Source: a virus. Taken from it: DNA of 64,000 bases. The DNA lies in the IMG/VR virus record IMGVR_UViG_3300031088_000737, positions 32,001 to 96,000 of that record. The stretch is one strand, 5' to 3'. Shown one piece after another: positions 3,593 through 47,893 of the stretch. How positions within the stretch are numbered: position 1 is the stretch's first letter; every line of letters begins with the position of its first letter. The notes under the pieces are model-generated. The model saw only the letters and a program-made list of their open reading frames with translations, searched no databases and was not told where the DNA came from. A program made the position numbers and the translations under genes.

Positions 3593-5116
3593 ATGAGTAA
3601 TTTTGACATTGCCAAGAAAGACGCTGCACGTCTATTAAAAATAGCTAAAGAAAACCTATCCGGTGATATGCCGACCATTCCTATCAAAAATCTAAGTCAA
3701 GCTAAAGAATATATTGCTAAAATAAAAGGATACAAAACATGGTTTGAATATGAACGTGAATTAAAAACACAAGATGCTCAATACATTAATTTTCATAAAA
3801 ATGAAAAATTAGCCGAAATTAAACGTGTTCTTGAAAACATTGATGACCTCACGAAACAAATACCTTTTAAATTTATCCCATCTGATCGTATAGTCGATGA
3901 GTTTAAATACTTTGAGAAAAAAGAAAGACAATCGTATGTCATAGCTAAAGAAATACAGGATAAAACATTTTTTTCTTCGCCTGAAAAACCTTGGAACATT
4001 AGTCAATATCCGCTTTATATCAGTGGTTCTACAGGATCGGGAAGTGATGAAAGTATATTTTCATTGTTGAATAATTATGTGAATAACCAAGAAGGGGCTA
4101 TCATCCTCAATGGTGATGGTGGTCATTCAAGCTTCTGGAAATTATATTCATCCGTTACTCATGCCAAACGAAATGATGACTTTTATATCTTAAATTTTAT
4201 GAGTAGAGATGAAAGTGCATCTAATACCATTGATCCGATTAACGATATCATCGGTGATGAAGCACTCTTTATGATATTGTTTGGTCAAAAAATGGGAGCA
4301 TTGATTAATTCTCTATGTGAATGTATTAAAAATGCAGATGGTTTAGTGTCCTTTGACAATTTAGAATCCTTTTTAAATTTAGACAACTTAAAACTTTTTT
4401 TAACCGATGATTTATTCAAATCTGCATGGTTGCAAATTGAAAGCTACCTTGCTGAGTTAGTAGACTTCGATGAGCGTAAAGCGATTAAAAAACATGTTAT
4501 CAATTGCATGCAAGCTCGAAAAACTGTTGATGTTATACTCAATCATCCTTTTGTTTTTTCTATTCAGCCACAAGTGAAAATGGATAAAGTGTTTTATCAA
4601 CGTAAACTATTGAATATTATGTTTCCATCTTTAGAGAAATCCCCAGATTACTGCTCTAATTTAGTTGCTTTGATTGTGGGAAATATTGAACATGTTGCTC
4701 GCAAATTTAAAGGTGTTCAAAACATTCAAAATATTATTTATAAAGAAATAGATTATTCTACATCTCATCAGTTAGTCGATTATATTTTCAAAGAAACAAA
4801 TCATGAGGCTATCAATTATATTTATAAATTTTATGGTCACTGGCAGCGATCATTGATGATTCCTAAATGTGTTGCTGAATCAAAAACATTTGCATTGATG
4901 AAAGAATATGATGAATACCCAGATGCTTTAAAGATAAAAATTTTTGACTATATGGTGGATAAGAAAGGAATATTTAGTAAAAAAGCCTTAAAAGATCTTG
5001 ATTGTGGTGAGGCATTTATATTCAGTACACTGCATCGACCAGTCTGTAAAGTTAAAATGATATATACGAAAATAGAAAGTGTTCATAGCTCTCAGTTAAA
5101 TAGAAAAAAAATGTAA
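3593..5116 (+). CDS. Degenerate DotL/IcmO-like type IVB coupling-protein homolog with an N-terminal helical domain
   Basis: GSTGSG, RNDDFYILNFM, SNTIDP and PSLEKSPDYCSNLVALIV resemble DotL motifs (from recall); Walker A lysine absent (GSDE). Confidence 0.6.
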   Translation: MSNFDIAKKDAARLLKIAKENLSGDMPTIPIKNLSQAKEYIAKIKGYKTWFEYERELKTQDAQYINFHKNEKLAEIKRVLENIDDLTKQIPFKFIPSDRIVDEFKYFEKKERQSYVIAKEIQDKTFFSSPEKPWNISQYPLYISGSTGSGSDESIFSLLNNYVNNQEGAIILNGDGGHSSFWKLYSSVTHAKRNDDFYILNFMSRDESASNTIDPINDIIGDEALFMILFGQKMGALINSLCECIKNADGLVSFDNLESFLNLDNLKLFLTDDLFKSAWLQIESYLAELVDFDERKAIKKHVINCMQARKTVDVILNHPFVFSIQPQVKMDKVFYQRKLLNIMFPSLEKSPDYCSNLVALIVGNIEHVARKFKGVQNIQNIIYKEIDYSTSHQLVDYIFKETNHEAINYIYKFYGHWQRSLMIPKCVAESKTFALMKEYDEYPDALKIKIFDYMVDKKGIFSKKALKDLDCGEAFIFSTLHRPVCKVKMIYTKIESVHSSQLNRKKM

Positions 5117-5206
5117 TGTATTAAATAATATTTATCTTGATTAAAACACATGACAACTTTATTATTTTGATAGAAATGTTATAATAAAAAAAACAATAAA
5201 ATTGTC

Positions 5207-6970
5207 ATGAATCAAGAATATTTAGATATAGCCTCAAATTACTCAAGTTCTTCAAGATTTAGTCACTGTATTGGCTATATTAAGATCCTTCCCTTTAAAG
5301 ACCCTACTGATGGTCTTCTCAATAGTTTAAAAACAAATTCTAAAAATATACTATTACCTTTTGGATCAATCAAACAATATTTAGAAGCTGAACAGTTTCA
5401 TATGATTGCTATTCAAGACAATGAAGAAATCACAGCTCGTTATCGTCTATTAAATGATATGAATATTATAAAAAAAATAAAACCTAACTTCACACAATTA
5501 AGTGTATTAGCACAAGAGGCTGGTGTTGATTATGGCGATCTTTTGGCTGATGTTAACCAATTAGAGCAAATAAATGAGCAATTGTTAGCCCCATTTAGAC
5601 GAACAATAGACTATTCACACGAACTATTATTACTCTGTCCTTATTTAATTAAAAGCAAATCATTGCCAACTTATGATAATTATTTGAACATGTTAAAAGA
5701 CTTAAATGAAGAATATGACGATATATTACATAATGGTTTCTATGACAAAATAGAAACACTCAAACATGAAATGGCTCACCATATGATCACTTTTCACAAT
5801 ATATTGGATAAAGTATTGGAAAGAATCCAAGAAAAAAATCCAGAAATTTTGTCTACAATGAGTTCTCGATATTCGACTGAATTAAATAATTCCACTGGGG
5901 ATATTTCACAGTTCTTATTGGATAAAACATTTGATGAAACTATTCAATCTTCTATAAAACTTGAAGACAATCAAAAAGTTCAAGCCTATATCGTATTTAA
6001 AGATAACAGTATTGCAGTGAAAACAAAAGGACAATTTTCAGCTATCAATACGATGTCTGAATTGGATAATTCTTTTGTTGGATTAAAAGAAAGTATTGTG
6101 GCGTATAAATTAAAAAAACGACCTCAAATAGCCAAGTTATTCATAGAGCTTGCAAGAGAAAGCATTCATTTTGACAAGTGTCTTATTGCTATTGATACGT
6201 TTATCAATAATGAACAAATTCTTAAAAATATGAAAATGGATTTAAACATATTTACAAATAAGTCATTTGAAGTTATAGATGACCACATGAATAGTTTAGT
6301 AAATGAACATAAAACTAATCAGTATGCGAACAGTATATTAAGTAATAAAAATAAACACCTATTAACACCCGCAGCAATAGCTTCTTTTAAATTATTAAGA
6401 GAAATGAATGTCACTGAACAAGAATTACAAAAGGCTGTTGGCAAAAAAATGGCGGCTATTAAAACGTCTGATGATTTGGAAGCTTACTTGGTTAAAGTGT
6501 TAGGACAGTATACAGGTTTTAGTCATGAAGCTGTATCTTCTAAATTAGAGCGTGCATCCATTATACCTGTTTATGATAATGGTGATGTATTAGTATTCCC
6601 AGTTACTGAGTATAAACATTCAAAAGAGCTAGGAAGTCCAAGCTGGTGTATTGTTCGTGAAGAAAGTTATTTTAGAACTTATACTGATTACAATCAAAAA
6701 CAATATTTTATGTATGACTTTTCTAAAAATGAAAAGGATAATGATTCTTTAATTGGGTTCACACTCACAAAAGATGGTAATTTTCACACTCAACATCTTA
6801 GAGATGATGATTACCTAAGTGTTGATGAAAAATTACAATATATTGCTGATAATATCATGTTTAACCACAAAGATGAATTTAATCTCAGTGAAAAGAAAAT
6901 AGCCAGCTTGGATAAAATGTTTGAGAAGACATTAAAAAAACAAATAAATAAAAATAAACAGGGTCTATAA
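5207..6970 (+). CDS. Hypothetical protein with GSPxWCIVR motif, paralog of 49688..51472
   Basis: Shared blocks KKRPQ, FxxKSFExIDD, VGKKMAAIK, GSPxWCIVRxESYF. Confidence 0.8.
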   Translation: MNQEYLDIASNYSSSSRFSHCIGYIKILPFKDPTDGLLNSLKTNSKNILLPFGSIKQYLEAEQFHMIAIQDNEEITARYRLLNDMNIIKKIKPNFTQLSVLAQEAGVDYGDLLADVNQLEQINEQLLAPFRRTIDYSHELLLLCPYLIKSKSLPTYDNYLNMLKDLNEEYDDILHNGFYDKIETLKHEMAHHMITFHNILDKVLERIQEKNPEILSTMSSRYSTELNNSTGDISQFLLDKTFDETIQSSIKLEDNQKVQAYIVFKDNSIAVKTKGQFSAINTMSELDNSFVGLKESIVAYKLKKRPQIAKLFIELARESIHFDKCLIAIDTFINNEQILKNMKMDLNIFTNKSFEVIDDHMNSLVNEHKTNQYANSILSNKNKHLLTPAAIASFKLLREMNVTEQELQKAVGKKMAAIKTSDDLEAYLVKVLGQYTGFSHEAVSSKLERASIIPVYDNGDVLVFPVTEYKHSKELGSPSWCIVREESYFRTYTDYNQKQYFMYDFSKNEKDNDSLIGFTLTKDGNFHTQHLRDDDYLSVDEKLQYIADNIMFNHKDEFNLSEKKIASLDKMFEKTLKKQINKNKQGL

Positions 6971-8640: not shown

Positions 8641-9456
8641 TCAATAATTAAAACTTTCTTGATATATTTTCTCTAGAACATCTTCAATACGCGAAACCAT
8701 CTTAAAATTAGCTTCTATACTGACACGATCTTCTTTTGATACGTTATCACCAATCCATACCCATGTGGTCTTGTTTGGAACATCAAGAAGCGTTAAACCT
8801 TCACAACATTCAATCGCATCTTCAATCATATGATTTTCAATACAAAAATCTCCAACAAGTGCTACTGAGTAACCAATGTTAGGTTCGTAGTCATTATAAA
8901 AGCTACTGAACAGAATAGATTCATCCAAGAAACCTTCGTTATAGAGAAAATACATGACTTGATTACCATGTGTGCTGGAATCTCGACCAAAATACAGATT
9001 ATCAATCAAATGACAGTCATCGTAACAGAAAAAAGTTTCCATATCTTCTTGATTGACTGAATTTAGCTTCAAAAACTCATTGAGAATAGTATCAATAACA
9101 GAATCCATATCGCGTTGTGTATCCACAAAAGCAATACCTGTTTGAGTATAAGAGTATAAAAGAATATTTGATAATCCAGAAGCCGTCATATCATCAGTCA
9201 AAGTTGTATAATTATTTTCAAACCATTTATCAGCATATTCGATGAAGTCTTGACCTAGCTCAGCTTTAAACCAAAAAATAGCTCCATCCCAAGAAAAGTT
9301 AGTGTCTTCTTCAAGAAAACTAATAGGTTGGTTATCTTCGATAAGATTAGCATGTCGGCTATTGTCTAGATTGAGCACCATCAGTACGCCATCAAAATGA
9401 TGGAACACTGGAGCATAACTGAGTTCAAATTGCTCTTTTGTGTGTTTGTAATACAT
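8641..9456 (-). CDS. Acidic hypothetical protein
   Basis: 271-aa ORF with GGAG SD. Confidence 0.75.
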   Translation of the reverse strand: MYYKHTKEQFELSYAPVFHHFDGVLMVLNLDNSRHANLIEDNQPISFLEEDTNFSWDGAIFWFKAELGQDFIEYADKWFENNYTTLTDDMTASGLSNILLYSYTQTGIAFVDTQRDMDSVIDTILNEFLKLNSVNQEDMETFFCYDDCHLIDNLYFGRDSSTHGNQVMYFLYNEGFLDESILFSSFYNDYEPNIGYSVALVGDFCIENHMIEDAIECCEGLTLLDVPNKTTWVWIGDNVSKEDRVSIEANFKMVSRIEDVLEKIYQESFNY

Positions 9457-9473
9457 GTTAAACTCCTATTAAA

Positions 9474-10040
9474 TTATACATCTTCTTCTTCTTTAAAGCG
9501 TTCAACAAAATCTTCTGTTTCTGGCAAACTTTCTAAACCATAGGAAGCCACCAATTTAACAGGATAATAATCTGTTACTGCATAGTTTGGGTTTTTCTTT
9601 TTAGGTGGAAGCTTATATTTCATAAATAATTCAGCCGATTCGCGTTCATCTTCAACAAAACCTTCATATACACTGAATGTCATCTTATCTAAATCGAGGA
9701 CATACACCCATTCGCAATAAAGAGAGTCACCTGCAAAAGAAACGCTGTTGATTAAATGAATTTCATCATCTGAATCAAAAATATATTGTAACAGTTCATG
9801 AGCTGCAGGCTGATGATGTTTGGGGGTGTCATATAAGTTTTTCTCTTGAAACTCTTTTTCACTGTGTAACCGAACATTTCTTAATTTCTTCTTGAATATA
9901 GCCATTTTTTTTGCATCAAGTGTGCGAACAAAATCTAAAACGTCGATACCAGTCCCACCGGGATAGCCATCAGAACGACCATATTGTGCGGCTTGAAACC
10001 TTTTATTTGCATAAACGCATACCAAGTGTCTTGTGCCCAT
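9474..10040 (-). CDS. Hypothetical protein with MGTR...YxxxDGYP N-terminus, a pattern common in phage proteins
   Basis: 188-aa ORF, AGGAG SD; family resemblance from recall only. Confidence 0.7.
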   Translation of the reverse strand: MGTRHLVCVYANKRFQAAQYGRSDGYPGGTGIDVLDFVRTLDAKKMAIFKKKLRNVRLHSEKEFQEKNLYDTPKHHQPAAHELLQYIFDSDDEIHLINSVSFAGDSLYCEWVYVLDLDKMTFSVYEGFVEDERESAELFMKYKLPPKKKNPNYAVTDYYPVKLVASYGLESLPETEDFVERFKEEEDV

Positions 10041-10136
10041 ATAAATCTCCTAAAATAAGTATCGTCTATATTATCATCTTTATCTTGAAATTACAATAAA
10101 ATAATGATAGTCTATTGTGAGAAAAATGGAGAAATC

Positions 10137-10877
10137 ATGAATATTCAATTGATTTTAGATAAAACTAAGTTTACCGATTTAGAGAAAATAAAAGTAGGTG
10201 CATTTATTACACCACTGACTAATAACATGAGTATCGTGTCGATTGAATATTCAGACTTAGATAAATATGAAATGATTAGCATCCATTTACATGACATTGT
10301 TTATTATTTTGGAAAGTCAGAAGTTGGACAAGTCTTAACATTGACATCATTTGAACGTTCAAAAGAAACTTATACAGAATACCAATTTTTTAGTAGTTTT
10401 ATCCCTACGATTGTTTACAAATTTAAGGAAGGTAAATCATTAGGCATGGGTAATGGAAGAAAAGAACGAAAACGAACCACTTTATACAATACTGCGTATG
10501 TTGATCCCATGATCAAAGTCGATATCGGTTATGCGGGTGGATCTGAAAAGCCAAAACAGATTACTGTTTATGTTCAAAAAAACGATTTGGTCAAGGTCAA
10601 CAAAGGTTTCACATTGGATCTCGTTAACTATTATTTTACGATTGACATGAAAACAAAAGAAGTTTTAGAAACACACTCGCATGGTGCAAAACGTTACAAC
10701 ATGTTATTTTCTGATAAACAATTTAAAAATCATACAAAATATAAATACTCAACAGAACTGGCAGAAAATTTTCTCGGATGTTTTAGCTCTTTGAATGATG
10801 TTCAAGATGTTTATTCAACGATAGGAAGGGAAGGGATACAGAATTTTGTTTACCTCAGTAAAATGATTTTAATTTAA
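10137..10877 (+). CDS. Hypothetical protein (C-terminal M-4 family)
   Basis: GGAG SD before ATG 10137; ends LSKMILI. Confidence 0.7.
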   Translation: MNIQLILDKTKFTDLEKIKVGAFITPLTNNMSIVSIEYSDLDKYEMISIHLHDIVYYFGKSEVGQVLTLTSFERSKETYTEYQFFSSFIPTIVYKFKEGKSLGMGNGRKERKRTTLYNTAYVDPMIKVDIGYAGGSEKPKQITVYVQKNDLVKVNKGFTLDLVNYYFTIDMKTKEVLETHSHGAKRYNMLFSDKQFKNHTKYKYSTELAENFLGCFSSLNDVQDVYSTIGREGIQNFVYLSKMILI

Positions 10878-30395: not shown

Positions 30396-31526
30396 ATGAA
30401 ATTTTCAAACATATTTTTTAACAACAGTTCATTCGCTAAAGATAACCAATCATTGAACTTGGTAGACTTAACTAAAAAAGCGTGCTTCTTTAACCAAGAC
30501 TCATCTGGCATTTACTCCACTTTGTCACTGGGCTATATCTTAGAGAAGAAGATAGAACGAATCATCGAAGATGAGTTATCAGAGATAGGCTTTTCACAAA
30601 TGCGTTTAAGTTTAATTCAAGACGCTGATTTATGGAAAGAAACAGGTCGATATGACCAATACGGTGAAGAATTATTCAAATTGAAAAATAGGGCTGGCAA
30701 AGAGCTTGTTTTGAGTGCTACATGTGAAGAATCCATCACTAACATTGTGAAGTCTTACTACAATTTCACGAAAACAAATTTGAAGATGTTTCAAATTGGT
30801 AATAAATACAGAGATGAGTTAAGAGCTAAATCTGGTTTAGTGCGTGGTCGTGAGTTTTTAATGTCAGATGCTTATCATTTCTCTAATAGCAAAGAGAATA
30901 TTGTGACGACTTACAATGAAGTGAAAGAAGCCTATATCAGAATATTTACACGTTTAGGATTAGAATTTCATATTCAAGGTTCTGATGTTGGTGAGATGGG
31001 TGGTATAGCCTCAGAAGAGTTCCGTTGTATCAGTGAGTTTGGTGAGGATATCGGTGAAGATGGTAGCAAAAACCTTGAAATAGGACACATCTTTAACTTG
31101 GGCACTCACTACTCTAAAAAAATGGGCTTATTGGATAATATCAAACAACATGTGAATATGGCATGCTTTGGTATTGGTGTATCCAGAACATTGATGGCTT
31201 TATTAGAAAAACAACGTGATGAAAAAGGTTTCTTTGGCACTGCAGCTTTCAATACCTTTGATTACATTATAACGGCTATTGATTATGAGAAGAATAAAGA
31301 AGTCGCTGATGGTCTTTATCAATCATTAAAGAAACAAGGTTATTCAGTCTTGTTAGATGATAGAAATGTTTCTGCTGGCAATAAGTTCAATGACAGTGAA
31401 TTGATTGGTGTTAGCAATCGCATTATTGTCAGTAACAAGAGTATTGTTAACAATCAATATGAAGTGTTGAACAGAGAAACAAACACGGCGAAAACGGTCA
31501 GTATTGAAGAATTACAACAATTGTAA
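30396..31526 (+). CDS. proS: Minimal prolyl-tRNA synthetase lacking the editing insertion
   Basis: LWKETGRYDQYGEELFKLKNR, motif 2 FQIGNKYRDELRAKSGLVRGREFLM, EIGHIF, motif 3 GIGVSR, anticodon-binding domain; only 376 aa. Confidence 0.9.
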   Translation: MKFSNIFFNNSSFAKDNQSLNLVDLTKKACFFNQDSSGIYSTLSLGYILEKKIERIIEDELSEIGFSQMRLSLIQDADLWKETGRYDQYGEELFKLKNRAGKELVLSATCEESITNIVKSYYNFTKTNLKMFQIGNKYRDELRAKSGLVRGREFLMSDAYHFSNSKENIVTTYNEVKEAYIRIFTRLGLEFHIQGSDVGEMGGIASEEFRCISEFGEDIGEDGSKNLEIGHIFNLGTHYSKKMGLLDNIKQHVNMACFGIGVSRTLMALLEKQRDEKGFFGTAAFNTFDYIITAIDYEKNKEVADGLYQSLKKQGYSVLLDDRNVSAGNKFNDSELIGVSNRIIVSNKSIVNNQYEVLNRETNTAKTVSIEELQQL

Positions 31527-45557: not shown

Positions 45558-45613
45558 TTCAGTTTGTAATTTTAAAGATAAAAAAACCGTAAGTGAATAC
45601 GGTTTATTTTATT

Positions 45614-45697
45614 TGGTGCGGAAAGTGGGACTCGAACCCACACGCCTCTCGGCACTGGCTTCTAAGACCAGCGTGTCTACCATTCCACCATTTCCGC
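45614..45697 (-). tRNA. tRNA-Leu(UAG)
   Basis: GCGGAAA/TTTCCGC-A-CCA; loop CT TAG AA; long variable arm. Confidence 0.95.
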
Positions 45698-45704
45698 ATA
45701 GACA

Positions 45705-46049
45705 TTAATATTTCTTTTCAATATAATTTAAATCAACATTTTCAAAGATAAAATCTATATTATTATTTTTGCAACAGGTTATCAAATCTTGATAGTCTTC
45801 AAAATCATTGGCATCATAATCAGGAATACTATCTTCATGTTCATATAAATCAATTAAACTGTAACTCAACTCAGTTTCATCAACACCAGCAATATCGGAC
45901 CATTCTTTTCGAATAGAACGTTTAAAGACATAATCAGTAAAATCTTCTTTATGTGGCTCTGCAACCAGTTCGCCATCAAGGAAGATATTCCAATAACGAT
46001 TGTCATACAAATTAACGATAACAATTTTACCTTTCACTGAGTTTGTCAT
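45705..46049 (-). CDS. Small acidic hypothetical protein inside the tRNA operon
   Basis: Start moved to MTNSVKG; the track extension runs into a tRNA gene. Confidence 0.65.
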   Translation of the reverse strand: MTNSVKGKIVIVNLYDNRYWNIFLDGELVAEPHKEDFTDYVFKRSIRKEWSDIAGVDETELSYSLIDLYEHEDSIPDYDANDFEDYQDLITCCKNNNIDFIFENVDLNYIEKKY

Positions 46050-46084
46050 GTTTAAATACCTTTGTAAGAAATAAAACATAAAGT

Positions 46085-46168
46085 TGGTGCCCGAAGACGG
46101 ACTCGAACCGTCACTCCCGAAGGAAGGGGATTTTAAGTCCCCCGCGTCTACCATTTCGCCATTCGGGC
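46085..46168 (-). tRNA. tRNA-Leu(UAA)
   Basis: GCCCGAA/TTCGGGC-A-CCA; GGGGA CT TAA AA TCCCC. Confidence 0.95.
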
Positions 46169-46178
46169 ATAAAAAAGT

Positions 46179-46274
46179 AATTCAATATTTTAGAATGCAT
46201 TTCAGCAAACGTGTCTACCACTCCACCACCCCGTGCAAACACGAGAAAAGGATTCGAACCTTCGATATTGAATT
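46179..46274 (-). ncRNA. Circularly permuted tRNA-like RNA (T arm, loop-closed acceptor stem, D arm)
   Basis: AATTCAATAT/ATATTGAATT outer stem; GAAGG TTCGAAT CCTTT; TCTCGTG-TTTG-CACGGGG; TG GTG GAGTGGTAGA CAC. Confidence 0.75.
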
Positions 46275-46279
46275 AAATC

Positions 46280-46364
46280 TGGTCCCCGGAGCCGGACTCG
46301 AACCGGCACGCCTTTCGGCGGGAGATTTTAAGTCTCCTGTGTCTACCAATTCCACCATCCGGGG
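46280..46364 (-). tRNA. tRNA-Leu(UAA)
   Basis: CCCCGGA/TCCGGGG-A-CCA; GGAGA CT TAA AA TCTCC. Confidence 0.95.
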
Positions 46365-46382
46365 ATAAACACATGTACAATC

Positions 46383-46468
46383 TGGTACCCGAAGTCGGAC
46401 TCGAACCGACACGCTTTTCAGCGGGAGATTTTGAATCTCCTGTGTACTACCAATTTCACCATTCGGGC
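46383..46468 (-). tRNA. tRNA-Leu(CAA)
   Basis: GCCCGAA/TTCGGGT-A-CCA; GGAGA TT CAA AA TCTCC. Confidence 0.93.
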
Positions 46469-46479
46469 ATATCTAAATC

Positions 46480-46564
46480 TGGTACGGAAGATGGGACTCG
46501 AACCCACACGCCTCGCGGCACTGGTTTCTGAAACCAGCATGTGCTACCATTTCATCACTTCCGC
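46480..46564 (-). tRNA. tRNA-Leu(CAG)
   Basis: GCGGAAG/CTTCCGT-A-CCA; CTGGT TT CAG AA ACCAG. Confidence 0.93.
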
Positions 46565-46578
46565 ATTAACTCATAATT

Positions 46579-46664
46579 TGGTACCCGAAGTCGGACTCGA
46601 ACCGACACGCCTTTCAGCGGGAGATTTTAAGTCTCCTGTGTACTACCAATTTCACCATTCTGGC
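46579..46664 (-). tRNA. tRNA-Leu(UAA) with one acceptor-stem mismatch
   Basis: GCCAGAA/TTCGGGT-A-CCA (A4:G69 mismatch); GGAGA CT TAA AA TCTCC. Confidence 0.88.
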
Positions 46665-46675
46665 ATATCTAAATT

Positions 46676-46759
46676 TGGTGCGTTAGGTGAGACTCGAACT
46701 CACAATCCTTTCGGCACTGGCTTCTTAGACCAGCGTGTATACCATTCCACCACTAACGC
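46676..46759 (-). tRNA. tRNA-Leu(AAG)
   Basis: GCGTTAG/CTAACGC-A-CCA; CTGGT CT AAG AA GCCAG. Confidence 0.93.
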
Positions 46760-46768
46760 ATGATTTGT

Positions 46769-46915
46769 CGCTTAAAGTAGGAGTCGAACCTACAAGTCAT
46801 GGACTCAATGTCCATCGCGTCTACCGTTCCGCCATATTAGTAAGATACTAATAACAGGATTCGAACCTGTAATGACAGGGCTATCACCCTATGTCTACCA
46901 TTCCATCATTTAAGC
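46769..46915 (-). ncRNA. Fused double-cloverleaf tRNA-like RNA with swapped acceptor strands
   Basis: Outer GCTTAAA/TTTAAGC; internal TATTAGT-ATCTT-ACTAATA; two D arms, two T arms, two non-canonical anticodon arms. Confidence 0.75.
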
Positions 46916-46919
46916 AATC

Positions 46920-47003
46920 TGGTGCGGAAGGTGGGACTCGAACCCACACGTCTCTCGACACTGGCTTCTAAGGCCAGCACGTCTACCATTTCATCACTTC
47001 CGC
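46920..47003 (-). tRNA. tRNA-Leu(UAG)
   Basis: GCGGAAG/CTTCCGC-A-CCA; CTGGC CT TAG AA GCCAG. Confidence 0.95.
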
Positions 47004-47025
47004 GTGATATTTCTTTACATCAATT

Positions 47026-47109
47026 TGGTGCCCCGAGGGAGACTCGAACTCCCACTCCTTTCGGAAACGGATTTTGAATCCGCCGCGTCTACCATTCCGC
47101 CATCGGGGC
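47026..47109 (-). tRNA. tRNA-Leu(CAA)
   Basis: GCCCCGA/TCGGGGC-A-CCA; GCGGA TT CAA AA TCCGT. Confidence 0.95.
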
Positions 47110-47141
47110 TTATGTTGTAGCTACATATCTTACTATAAATC

Positions 47142-47225
47142 TGGTGCGATTGGAGAGACTTGAACTCTCAATCCTTGCGGCATTGGCTTCTTAGACCAAC
47201 GTGTATACCATTCCACCACAATCGC
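47142..47225 (-). tRNA. tRNA-Leu(AAG)
   Basis: GCGATTG/CAATCGC-A-CCA; TTGGT CT AAG AA GCCAA. Confidence 0.93.
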
Positions 47226-47232
47226 ATATCTT

Positions 47233-47316
47233 AATGAGTAAAGGGACTCGAACCCTTACGCCTTTATGGGGCATGTCTAAGCGAAGACATTATGGCTACC
47301 ATTACATCATACTCAT
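47233..47316 (-). ncRNA. Leu-type tRNA body with 8-nt anticodon loop and no encoded CCA
   Basis: ATGAGTA/TACTCAT; ATGTC TTCGCTTA GACAT; variable arm GCC..GGC; AAGGG TTCGAGT CCCTT. Confidence 0.7.
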
Positions 47317-47318
47317 CA

Positions 47319-47399
47319 GGGGTTTGACTTTGATAATAGTGAGTTACAAGCTAATAATTACTATGTTTCAAAGTTTCCAGTGGGAACCGGAGCAACCCA
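47319..47399 (-). ncRNA. Candidate structured RNA in the array spacer
   Basis: GGGTT/AACCC closing stem; TCCGG TTCCCA CTGGA hairpin (G-U favours minus strand); ACTTTGA/TCAAAGT and ATAGT/ACTAT stems. Confidence 0.4.
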
Positions 47400-47415
47400 A
47401 TTTTAAATCTTTATT

Positions 47416-47500
47416 TGGTGCGGAAGGTGAGACTTGAACTCACAATCATTATAGAAACTGTGTTTGAGACAGTCGCGTTTACCAGTTTCGCCACATCCGC
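47416..47500 (-). tRNA. tRNA-Leu(CAA)
   Basis: GCGGATG/CTTCCGC-A-CCA (one U-U pair); ACTGT CT CAA AC ACAGT. Confidence 0.9.
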
Positions 47501-47552
47501 ATATTTATTTCTTTAAGAGTGTTTGTTTGTTTCCTCACTCTTCATGTTTACT

Positions 47553-47581
47553 ATCTTACCAACTCTTTTCTTCTTTGTCAA
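47553..47581 (-). promoter_or_regulatory. Proximal sigma70 promoter (P2) of the tRNA array
   Basis: TTGACA-17-TAAGAT with AT-rich upstream region. Confidence 0.75.
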
Positions 47582-47671
47582 CAACTATTTTAAATTATTT
47601 TAAAATATTTTCCTTTTAAATCAATGATTTACGTTGTTTATAGTTGTAGTTAACCCTAGACATTCGCCCAT

Positions 47672-47693
47672 AAAAAAAGACCCTTTTGGGGTC
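47672..47693 (-). terminator. Attenuator terminator
   Basis: GACCC-CAAAA-GGGTC-TTTTTTT; its 5' GAC overlaps the antiterminator strand GCATCTGGAC. Confidence 0.8.
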
Positions 47694-47776
47694 CAGATGC
47701 GAAATGAGGCGAGTTTTTATATTCGAGGTCATCTGCATCTGGACAATCTAATTGTCCAAAATGCAGACAAATAGAT
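47691..47776 (-). promoter_or_regulatory. Mutually exclusive attenuator hairpins (protector, anti-antiterminator, antiterminator)
   Basis: ATCTATTTGTC/GACAATTAGAT; TCTGCATTTTGGACAAT/ATTGTCCAGATGCAGA; GTCCAGATGC/GCATCTGGAC. Confidence 0.75.
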
Positions 47777-47777
47777 G

Positions 47778-47840
47778 CTAGCCCAAGCTAAGTAATAGTG
47801 AGCTTAAGAGTAGCAGTGATAATCGAATAGTTGTGAACAT
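47778..47840 (-). CDS. Leucine leader peptide MFTTIRLSLLLLSSLLLSLG
   Basis: GAGGA SD; 9 Leu codons (TTA x3, CTA x2, CTG, CTC, CTT, TTG); missed by the ORF track. Confidence 0.8.
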   Translation of the reverse strand: MFTTIRLSLLLLSSLLLSLG

Positions 47841-47864
47841 AATTTCGTCCTCGTTAATTCTTAT

Positions 47865-47893
47865 ATTTTATCAAAGGTTCGTTTCAAAGTCAA
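47865..47893 (-). promoter_or_regulatory. sigma70 promoter (P1) of the Leu leader
   Basis: TTGACT-17-TAAAAT with extended -10 TG; back-to-back with a divergent TTGACT..TAAGAT promoter. Confidence 0.8.

Follow-up and report, generated by a model that had tools for sequence, protein, structure and literature searches.

We analyzed a putative leader-peptide attenuator located before an array of leucine transfer RNA (tRNA) genes in the IMG/VR record IMGVR_UViG_3300031088_000737. Unless marked as record positions, coordinates refer to a 64-kb window (64,000 nucleotides) corresponding to bases 32001-96000 of this 181-kb record. The locus forms a single minus-strand transcription unit at 45578-47893, which proceeds from a promoter (P1) through a leader, a terminator, a second promoter (P2), and the tRNA array to a final terminator. 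Approximately 100 nucleotides (nt) of strongly structured RNA separate the leader open reading frame (ORF) from the terminator that follows it. In the order of transcription, the features are as follows.

47865..47893, minus strand: promoter P1, TTGACT-17-TAAAAT with an extended -10 TG (10/12 versus consensus)
47848..47852, minus strand: Shine-Dalgarno (SD) sequence GAGGA, 7 nt 5' of the ATG at 47840 and invariant among relatives
47778..47840, minus strand: leader ORF of 20 codons plus a TAG stop (47780-47778)
47765..47776, minus strand: segment A, the 5' strand of helix A:B, beginning 2 nt past the stop codon
47746..47757, minus strand: segment B, the partner of A (about -8 to -9.5 kcal/mol) and alternatively part of the long hairpin
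47731..47768, minus strand: long hairpin B':C (about -21 kcal/mol), sequestering antiterminator strand C when A is masked
47729..47744, minus strand: segment C, the 5' strand of the 16-bp antiterminator, which pairs with D
47708..47728, minus strand: variable linker forming the antiterminator loop, whose CCUC is able to base-pair with the SD when the RNA is untranslated
47691..47707, minus strand: segment D, the 3' strand of the antiterminator, overlapping the 5' arm of the terminator
47672..47694, minus strand: intrinsic terminator with a 6-bp stem (GGACCC/GGGUCU, 47694-47678), a 5-nt loop, and U7
47553..47625, minus strand: P2 module with an A/T-rich upstream region, common to all arrays of the lineage
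47553..47581, minus strand: promoter P2, TTGACA-17-TAAGAT, near-consensus and downstream of the terminator
45614..47500, minus strand: tRNA array found with ARAGORN and Rfam, with 11 tRNA-Leu genes, two odd tRNA-like genes, and tRNA fragments
45705..46049, minus strand: acidic ORF of 114 amino acids between the last two tRNA genes, kept in relatives
45578..45605, minus strand: array-ending terminator (hairpin 45605-45584)

The leader ORF is dominated by leucine. Nine of its codons specify Leu (codons 7, 9-12, 15-17, and 19), comprising three UUA, two CUA, and one each of CUG, CUC, CUU, and UUG. All six synonyms are represented, and these are exactly the codons read by the five anticodons of the downstream array. 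Given the record's Leu frequency of 9.1%, the probability of observing at least nine Leu in the 19 post-start codons is 1.7e-5, and the probability that nine Leu codons would include all six synonyms is 0.039 under local codon usage (UUA 41%, CUG 5%, CUC 6%). An original prediction, made by a model from the letters of the sequence, had proposed a leucine-sensing attenuator at this locus. P1, the SD, the ORF, and its nine Leu codons were all present on the minus strand at the positions it named, as were mutually exclusive helices and the terminator. The predicted 10-bp pairing between GTCCAGATGC and GCATCTGGAC (47744-47735 with 47700-47691) proved to be longer, with six further pairs (47734-47729 with 47707-47702) completing the 16-bp antiterminator.

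ARAGORN and Rfam agreed on the anticodons of the 11 tRNA-Leu genes, which are CAA and UAA (three copies each), UAG and AAG (two each), and CAG. Every one of these genes has a long variable arm, A73, and an encoded CCA. The original prediction had placed these 11 genes alone downstream of the leader; their number was correct, and the array also holds the two odd tRNA-like genes, the fragments, and the 114-residue ORF, for which we found no match in Pfam, NCBIfam, or the protein atlas. By the definition in PMC4758250, a tRNA array unit contains at least 20 tRNA genes at a density of at least 2 per kb. The 13 tRNA-like genes in 1.9 kb observed here exceed the density and number fewer than 20. The regulated genes are tRNA genes and one ORF, placing them outside the classical scope of attenuators (amino-acid biosynthesis or aminoacyl-tRNA synthetase genes). 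Several peculiarities of the unit were observed, all on the minus strand: a tRNA-like gene with an 8-nt anticodon loop (47232-47317), a 76-nt gene called Gln(UUG) (46767-46842), truncated tRNA-like fragments at about 46850-46915 and about 46170-46280, and an A.G mismatch in the acceptor stem of one Leu-UAA copy (46579-46664). Between P2 and the first tRNA is an (AAAC)n repeat (about 47520-47545, minus strand) that varies from 2 to 8 units among relatives.

To model the effect of a ribosome on the leader, we folded only the RNA lying 3' of the ribosome's leading edge, which is the classical assumption, and took folding to be at equilibrium. The leader RNA was far more stably folded than its shuffles (z = -5.4). 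Over the stretch from stop codon to terminator, the most stable structure combined A:B (47776-47765/47757-47746) with C:D (47744-47729/47707-47691) at -36.5 kcal/mol, and the alternative, in which the long hairpin (47768-47731) coexists with the terminator, was at about -30 kcal/mol. With the ribosomal A site on codons 7-17, the antiterminator had a probability of 0.84-0.99 (0.97-0.99 at all but one position) and the terminator a probability of 0.01-0.23 (≤ 0.08 except at one position). In contrast, a ribosome at codon 20 or the stop codon gave a terminator probability of 0.82-0.94 across leading edges of 10 to 16 nt. The resulting stop-versus-stall difference in terminator probability was 0.87. 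Shuffling the 83 nt from stop to terminator 300 times with dinucleotides preserved never reached this value and gave a mean difference of -0.02, with a standard deviation of 0.14 and a maximum of 0.58. Masked folding thereby reproduced the predicted behavior, with A:B and the antiterminator forming upon a stall and the terminator forming when a ribosome at the stop masks A. Within this model, selection by ribosome position between a mutually exclusive terminator and antiterminator holds thermodynamically. Wholly untranslated RNA adopted the terminator form with the SD paired to the linker CCUC, a pairing that received no support from covariation among relatives.

Relatives of the element were found through a protein collection, using homologues of the neighboring gene, and through one pattern scan of a metagenome. 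Homologues of this divergent neighbor gene (52-98% amino-acid identity) adjoin the same array in many metagenome contigs. In relatives whose neighbor gene is only 63% identical in nucleotide sequence, the leader ORF and helices are about 98-100% conserved. The P1 hexamers are kept in all relatives, with 27-29 of 29 promoter positions identical. Within the leader ORF, 62-63 of 63 nt are identical, every Leu codon is unchanged, and changes are confined to non-Leu codons, where they produce two non-conservative replacements (Ser to Cys and Phe to Ser). Nearly all other substitutions fall in the 23-nt antiterminator loop (17-23 of 23 identical across relatives, and 17-20 of 23 where the neighbor gene is at 63%), with the remainder located in the U-run separating A from B and at one unpaired (U.U) position of B. 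Judging from these comparisons, the leader is under strong purifying selection with the right pattern. A DNA search against phages returned nothing but generic tRNA-Leu matches, and pattern and protein scans of viral-contig and genome-contig collections found no relatives.

The arrangement recurs before other tRNA arrays. A second array lies in the same record outside the window, and a pattern built from the shared P2 module led to three contigs (114, 520, and 678 kb) of one Joint Genome Institute metagenome, which also hold this second array. The sister arrays and their leaders are as follows.

Record 156104-158247 (with its cassette, 155734-158247): Ala/Arg array with Ala-UGC x5, Ala-GGC, Arg-UCU x2, Arg-CCU, and CAU x2
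Related contig, minus strand: Ser/Tyr array with Ser-AGA, Ser-GCU, Ser-UGA x2, and Tyr-GUA x3, leader SSSYYYSYS
Related contig stretch 9290-10085, plus strand: Ile/Asp array, leader rich in AUU/AUC and GAU/GAC
Same contig stretch 6317-8350, minus strand: Glu/Arg array with Glu x10 and Arg-ACG x2, leader REREER

The Ala/Arg cassette contains a TTGACT-17-TATAAT promoter, a 13-codon ORF with the core AUA-AGA-GCC-AGA-GCG-AUA, alternative hairpins, a strong terminator, and a P2 module. This P2 module is nearly identical to that of the Leu array, whereas the leaders themselves are unrelated in sequence. Among relatives the Ala/Arg leader is invariant save for one G-to-A change, which converts U.G to U-A in one of the alternative helices. 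The Ser codons of the SSSYYYSYS leader are drawn from both codon boxes, and REREER is spelled CGA GAA CGA GAA GAA CGU. Arg is accordingly spelled AGA before the array with Arg-UCU and CGA or CGU before the array with Arg-ACG, which implies that the leaders follow anticodons and not the amino acid alone. We quantified this correspondence in a five-by-five table of leaders and arrays, where 40-56% of leader codons were decodable by their own array and 0-20% by the other arrays. The true leader-array pairing was the single best of 120 permutations, and leader codons matched their own array in all five cases. Two further features were observed at the Ile/Asp and Glu/Arg loci: the Ile/Asp leader contains Met and Val codons too and its locus stops after three tRNAs, and a TnpB/Cas12f-like (OrfB_IS605) gene (4786-6159, plus strand) adjoins the Glu/Arg array on the same contig stretch.

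Similar leaders were also found before aminoacyl-tRNA synthetase genes. When the record was scanned generically for short ORFs accompanied by a consensus promoter, an SD, and a T-run, exactly three matches emerged, which were the Leu leader, the Ala/Arg leader, and a leader before the gene for aspartyl-tRNA synthetase (AspRS). This leader and another before the gene for isoleucyl-tRNA synthetase (IleRS) are located as follows.

Record 6799-6620, minus strand: leader with a DNNDN run, preceding a non-discriminating AspRS
Record about 116510-116330, minus strand: IIII-run leader (AUU x3, AUC) equipped with a strong terminator, preceding an IleRS of 841 amino acids

A non-discriminating AspRS charges both tRNA-Asp and tRNA-Asn. 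Together, the AspRS and IleRS leaders imply that the organism uses leader-peptide attenuation routinely for translation genes. When folding was truncated before the 3' arm of the terminator, the AspRS leader displayed a clean antiterminator/terminator switch, and the Glu/Arg and Ile/Asp leaders switched between stall and stop. Equilibrium folding with the complete terminator gave no switch for the Ala/Arg, AspRS, Ser/Tyr, Ile/Asp, or Glu/Arg leaders, because the terminators of those leaders are strong. For the Leu leader, the anatomy, the switch, and its conservation were demonstrated in silico, as was the codon-to-array match in five arrays. Elsewhere in the window, a 20-codon ORF with an SD at about 30223 (plus strand) is followed by a hairpin and T-run upstream of an ORF at 30396-31526; it has no obvious codon run and may be another leader or a chance occurrence.

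We consider it likely that a ribosome-mediated leader-peptide attenuator gates read-through from P1 into the tRNA-Leu operon. The four codon-matched sister cassettes and the two synthetase attenuators strongly back the original prediction that such an element controls a tRNA array. We infer that P1 is active, that ribosomes translate the ORF, and that tRNA levels change with read-through. Under this model, transcripts from P1 would be translated at once. A ribosome that clears the nine Leu codons and reaches the last codons or the stop would cover A, so that B pairs with C in the long hairpin. D would thereby remain unpaired, allowing the D:E terminator with its U7 to form. Transcription would then end 170 nt before the first tRNA. 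If charged cognate tRNA were scarce, the ribosome would stall on any of the Leu codons, leaving A free to form A:B. The 16-bp C:D antiterminator would then block the terminator, and RNA polymerase would continue through P2 into the array. Read-through from P1 would come on top of transcription from P2, and the supply of the very tRNAs sampled by the leader would come under negative feedback.

Several observations weigh against this model. When pairing is also allowed for the 5' untranslated region upstream of the stalled ribosome, the lowest-energy structure retains the terminator, although this fold depends on the long-range SD-linker pairing, which is partly broken in relatives. Helix A:B is weak (-8 kcal/mol) and in competition with a local hairpin. 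The Ala/Arg and Ser/Tyr leaders gave no clean switch in equilibrium folding, even when truncated. The original prediction had suggested looking for covarying leaders before related Leu arrays; the ORF and helices are indeed kept in those leaders, while compensatory covariation was absent among the relatives, which are too similar and show only neutral or one-sided changes. P2 also remains the caveat that the original prediction had recognized, since a near-consensus promoter (47581-47553) situated 3' of the terminator means that attenuation only adds to a constitutive level and limits the dynamic range. Finally, extra tRNA is no help under amino-acid starvation, which would trigger the switch too.

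This last point bears on whether the element is instead a classical amino-acid starvation sensor that happens to precede tRNA genes, reporting the supply of leucine and not of tRNA, with tRNA output as part of a starvation programme instead of tRNA homeostasis. The mechanism is blind to the distinction between uncharged and missing tRNA, and the same genome has such leaders before synthetase genes, where they are classically read as charging sensors. Yet amino-acid starvation would not be relieved by making more tRNA, and codon choice tracks anticodons, as seen in the use of AGA versus CGA/CGU for Arg, of six codons for Leu, and of both boxes for Ser. We therefore regard a pure starvation sensor as unlikely. 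We give still less credence to two other explanations. The Leu-rich ORF might encode a functional small hydrophobic peptide (membrane or toxin-like) whose transcript is ended by the terminator, with the array expressed from P2 only. Its product is hydrophobic and resembles a signal peptide, and P2 is a strong promoter in its own right. Nevertheless, the four sister leaders are non-hydrophobic (RARA, SSSYYYSYS, D/I-rich, and REREER) and match their arrays, the ribosome-dependent helix switch is absent from shuffles, and the replacements of Ser by Cys and Phe by Ser in relatives are non-conservative while all Leu codons are fixed. It is just as improbable that no regulatory link exists, with the terminator serving to shield P2 from transcription entering from upstream and with the ORF and helices present only by accident. 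Stable-RNA operons are commonly preceded by tandem promoters and insulating terminators, but incidental features would not be expected to be 98-100% conserved beside a gene at 63%, to match codons in five of five arrays, or to outperform every shuffle.

IMG/VR classes the record as a provirus that is 58% complete. However, an identical neighbor protein occurs on contigs of 1.28 and 1.86 Mb, and relatives were found on two more, of 1.84 and 1.92 Mb. Among the gene products of the record are ClpA, IleRS, AspRS, Fpg, an MFS-acyltransferase fusion, and RtcB, as well as eukaryote-like kinase and HipA/LepB_N-like proteins, and related contigs encode OmpA-family proteins in addition. The ClpA shares only about 42% identity with any named protein. 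Searches for the Pfam families Terminase_6N and HK97 capsid found neither, and searches with two proteins found no close phage homologues; the Gp23 test matched no control genome and so says nothing on this point. Given the megabase-scale contigs, the cellular-type genes, and the lack of a detected capsid or terminase, the record is probably not a phage and its provirus label is doubtful. We read it, tentatively, as a chromosomal segment from an uncultured bacterium that branches deeply, has a low GC content, and contains many orphan genes. The original prediction had invoked tRNA cleavage by a host defence nuclease as one trigger; nothing ties the element to such a nuclease, and the 1.3-1.9 Mb contigs with cellular-type genes leave the phage framing unsupported. 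An RtcB-family RNA ligase gene (record 8791-10227, plus strand) lies about 2 kb from the AspRS attenuator and fits a tRNA-repair theme. Its presence in the record may keep tRNA damage possible.

Bacterial tRNA genes are textbook cases of promoters under growth-rate and stringent control. To our knowledge, no mechanism has been described that measures decoding capacity for particular codons and corrects the matching tRNA supply. If our interpretation is correct, these cassettes would be codon-specific sensors of decoding capacity built from classical attenuator parts. They would provide a natural sensor of tRNA availability at the level of isoacceptors, would explain how redundant and fast-evolving tRNA arrays stay in check, and would allow the tRNAs that an array should supply to be predicted from its leader alone. 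A broader proposal, which we hold tentatively and at slightly less than even chances, is that in this uncultured organism, whose GC content is low and whose genome measures about 1.9 Mb, a large part or all of the tRNA complement is organized in amino-acid-themed arrays, each gated by a leader that samples the codons its array decodes. Transcription of each tRNA set would then be adjusted, as in a servo loop, to how fast its own codons are decoded, amounting to a general isoacceptor-resolved tRNA homeostasis. Such a circuit could also replace tRNAs lost to anticodon nucleases; an RNA ligase gene is present in the same record.

Full-text literature searches found no leader-peptide attenuator before tRNA genes. 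No Rfam leader family, including Leu_leader, matched at the gathering threshold or E ≤ 10, and no T-box was matched in Rfam at either threshold. The closest parallel is leuL of the E. coli and Salmonella leu operon, which shares with the element a promoter, Leu control codons in a short ORF, exclusive terminator and antiterminator helices whose choice depends on where the ribosome sits, and an intrinsic terminator. Unlike the element, leuL controls leucine biosynthesis genes rather than tRNA-Leu genes, and the two have no homology in sequence or structure. Moreover, the leader here spreads nine Leu codons over six synonyms in place of a short run, and a second promoter follows the terminator. 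Leaders of the ilvGMEDA type, which mix Ile, Leu, and Val, resemble the sister leaders in combining amino acids (Ala+Arg+Ile-AUA, Ser+Tyr, Ile+Asp, and Glu+Arg). The mixtures here, however, mirror the downstream tRNAs to the synonymous codon and not the end products of a shared pathway. The pheM-pheST system places a component of the translation apparatus under a leader-peptide attenuator, making the IleRS and AspRS leaders direct analogues, but the regulated product of the arrays is the tRNA itself. The terminator form of the untranslated RNA, with its paired SD, resembles super-attenuation in the trp and his leaders.

Two other systems invite comparison. T-box riboswitches are likewise cis-acting leaders that sense a specific tRNA and choose between a terminator and an antiterminator, yet they bind uncharged tRNA directly without translation and control synthetase or amino-acid genes. 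In Anabaena, a long tRNA array (the trn operon) is induced by translational stress (PMC8421152), so that, as in our model, transcription of an accessory tRNA array rises when translation is impaired. In that study, regulation is proposed to be exerted by a labile repressor through direct repeats of the promoter, and no leader ORF, attenuator, or terminator is mentioned, whereas the control proposed here resides in a leader attenuator. We take the element to be, in all likelihood, a known switch applied to a new class of regulated gene, with sensing at the level of isoacceptors.

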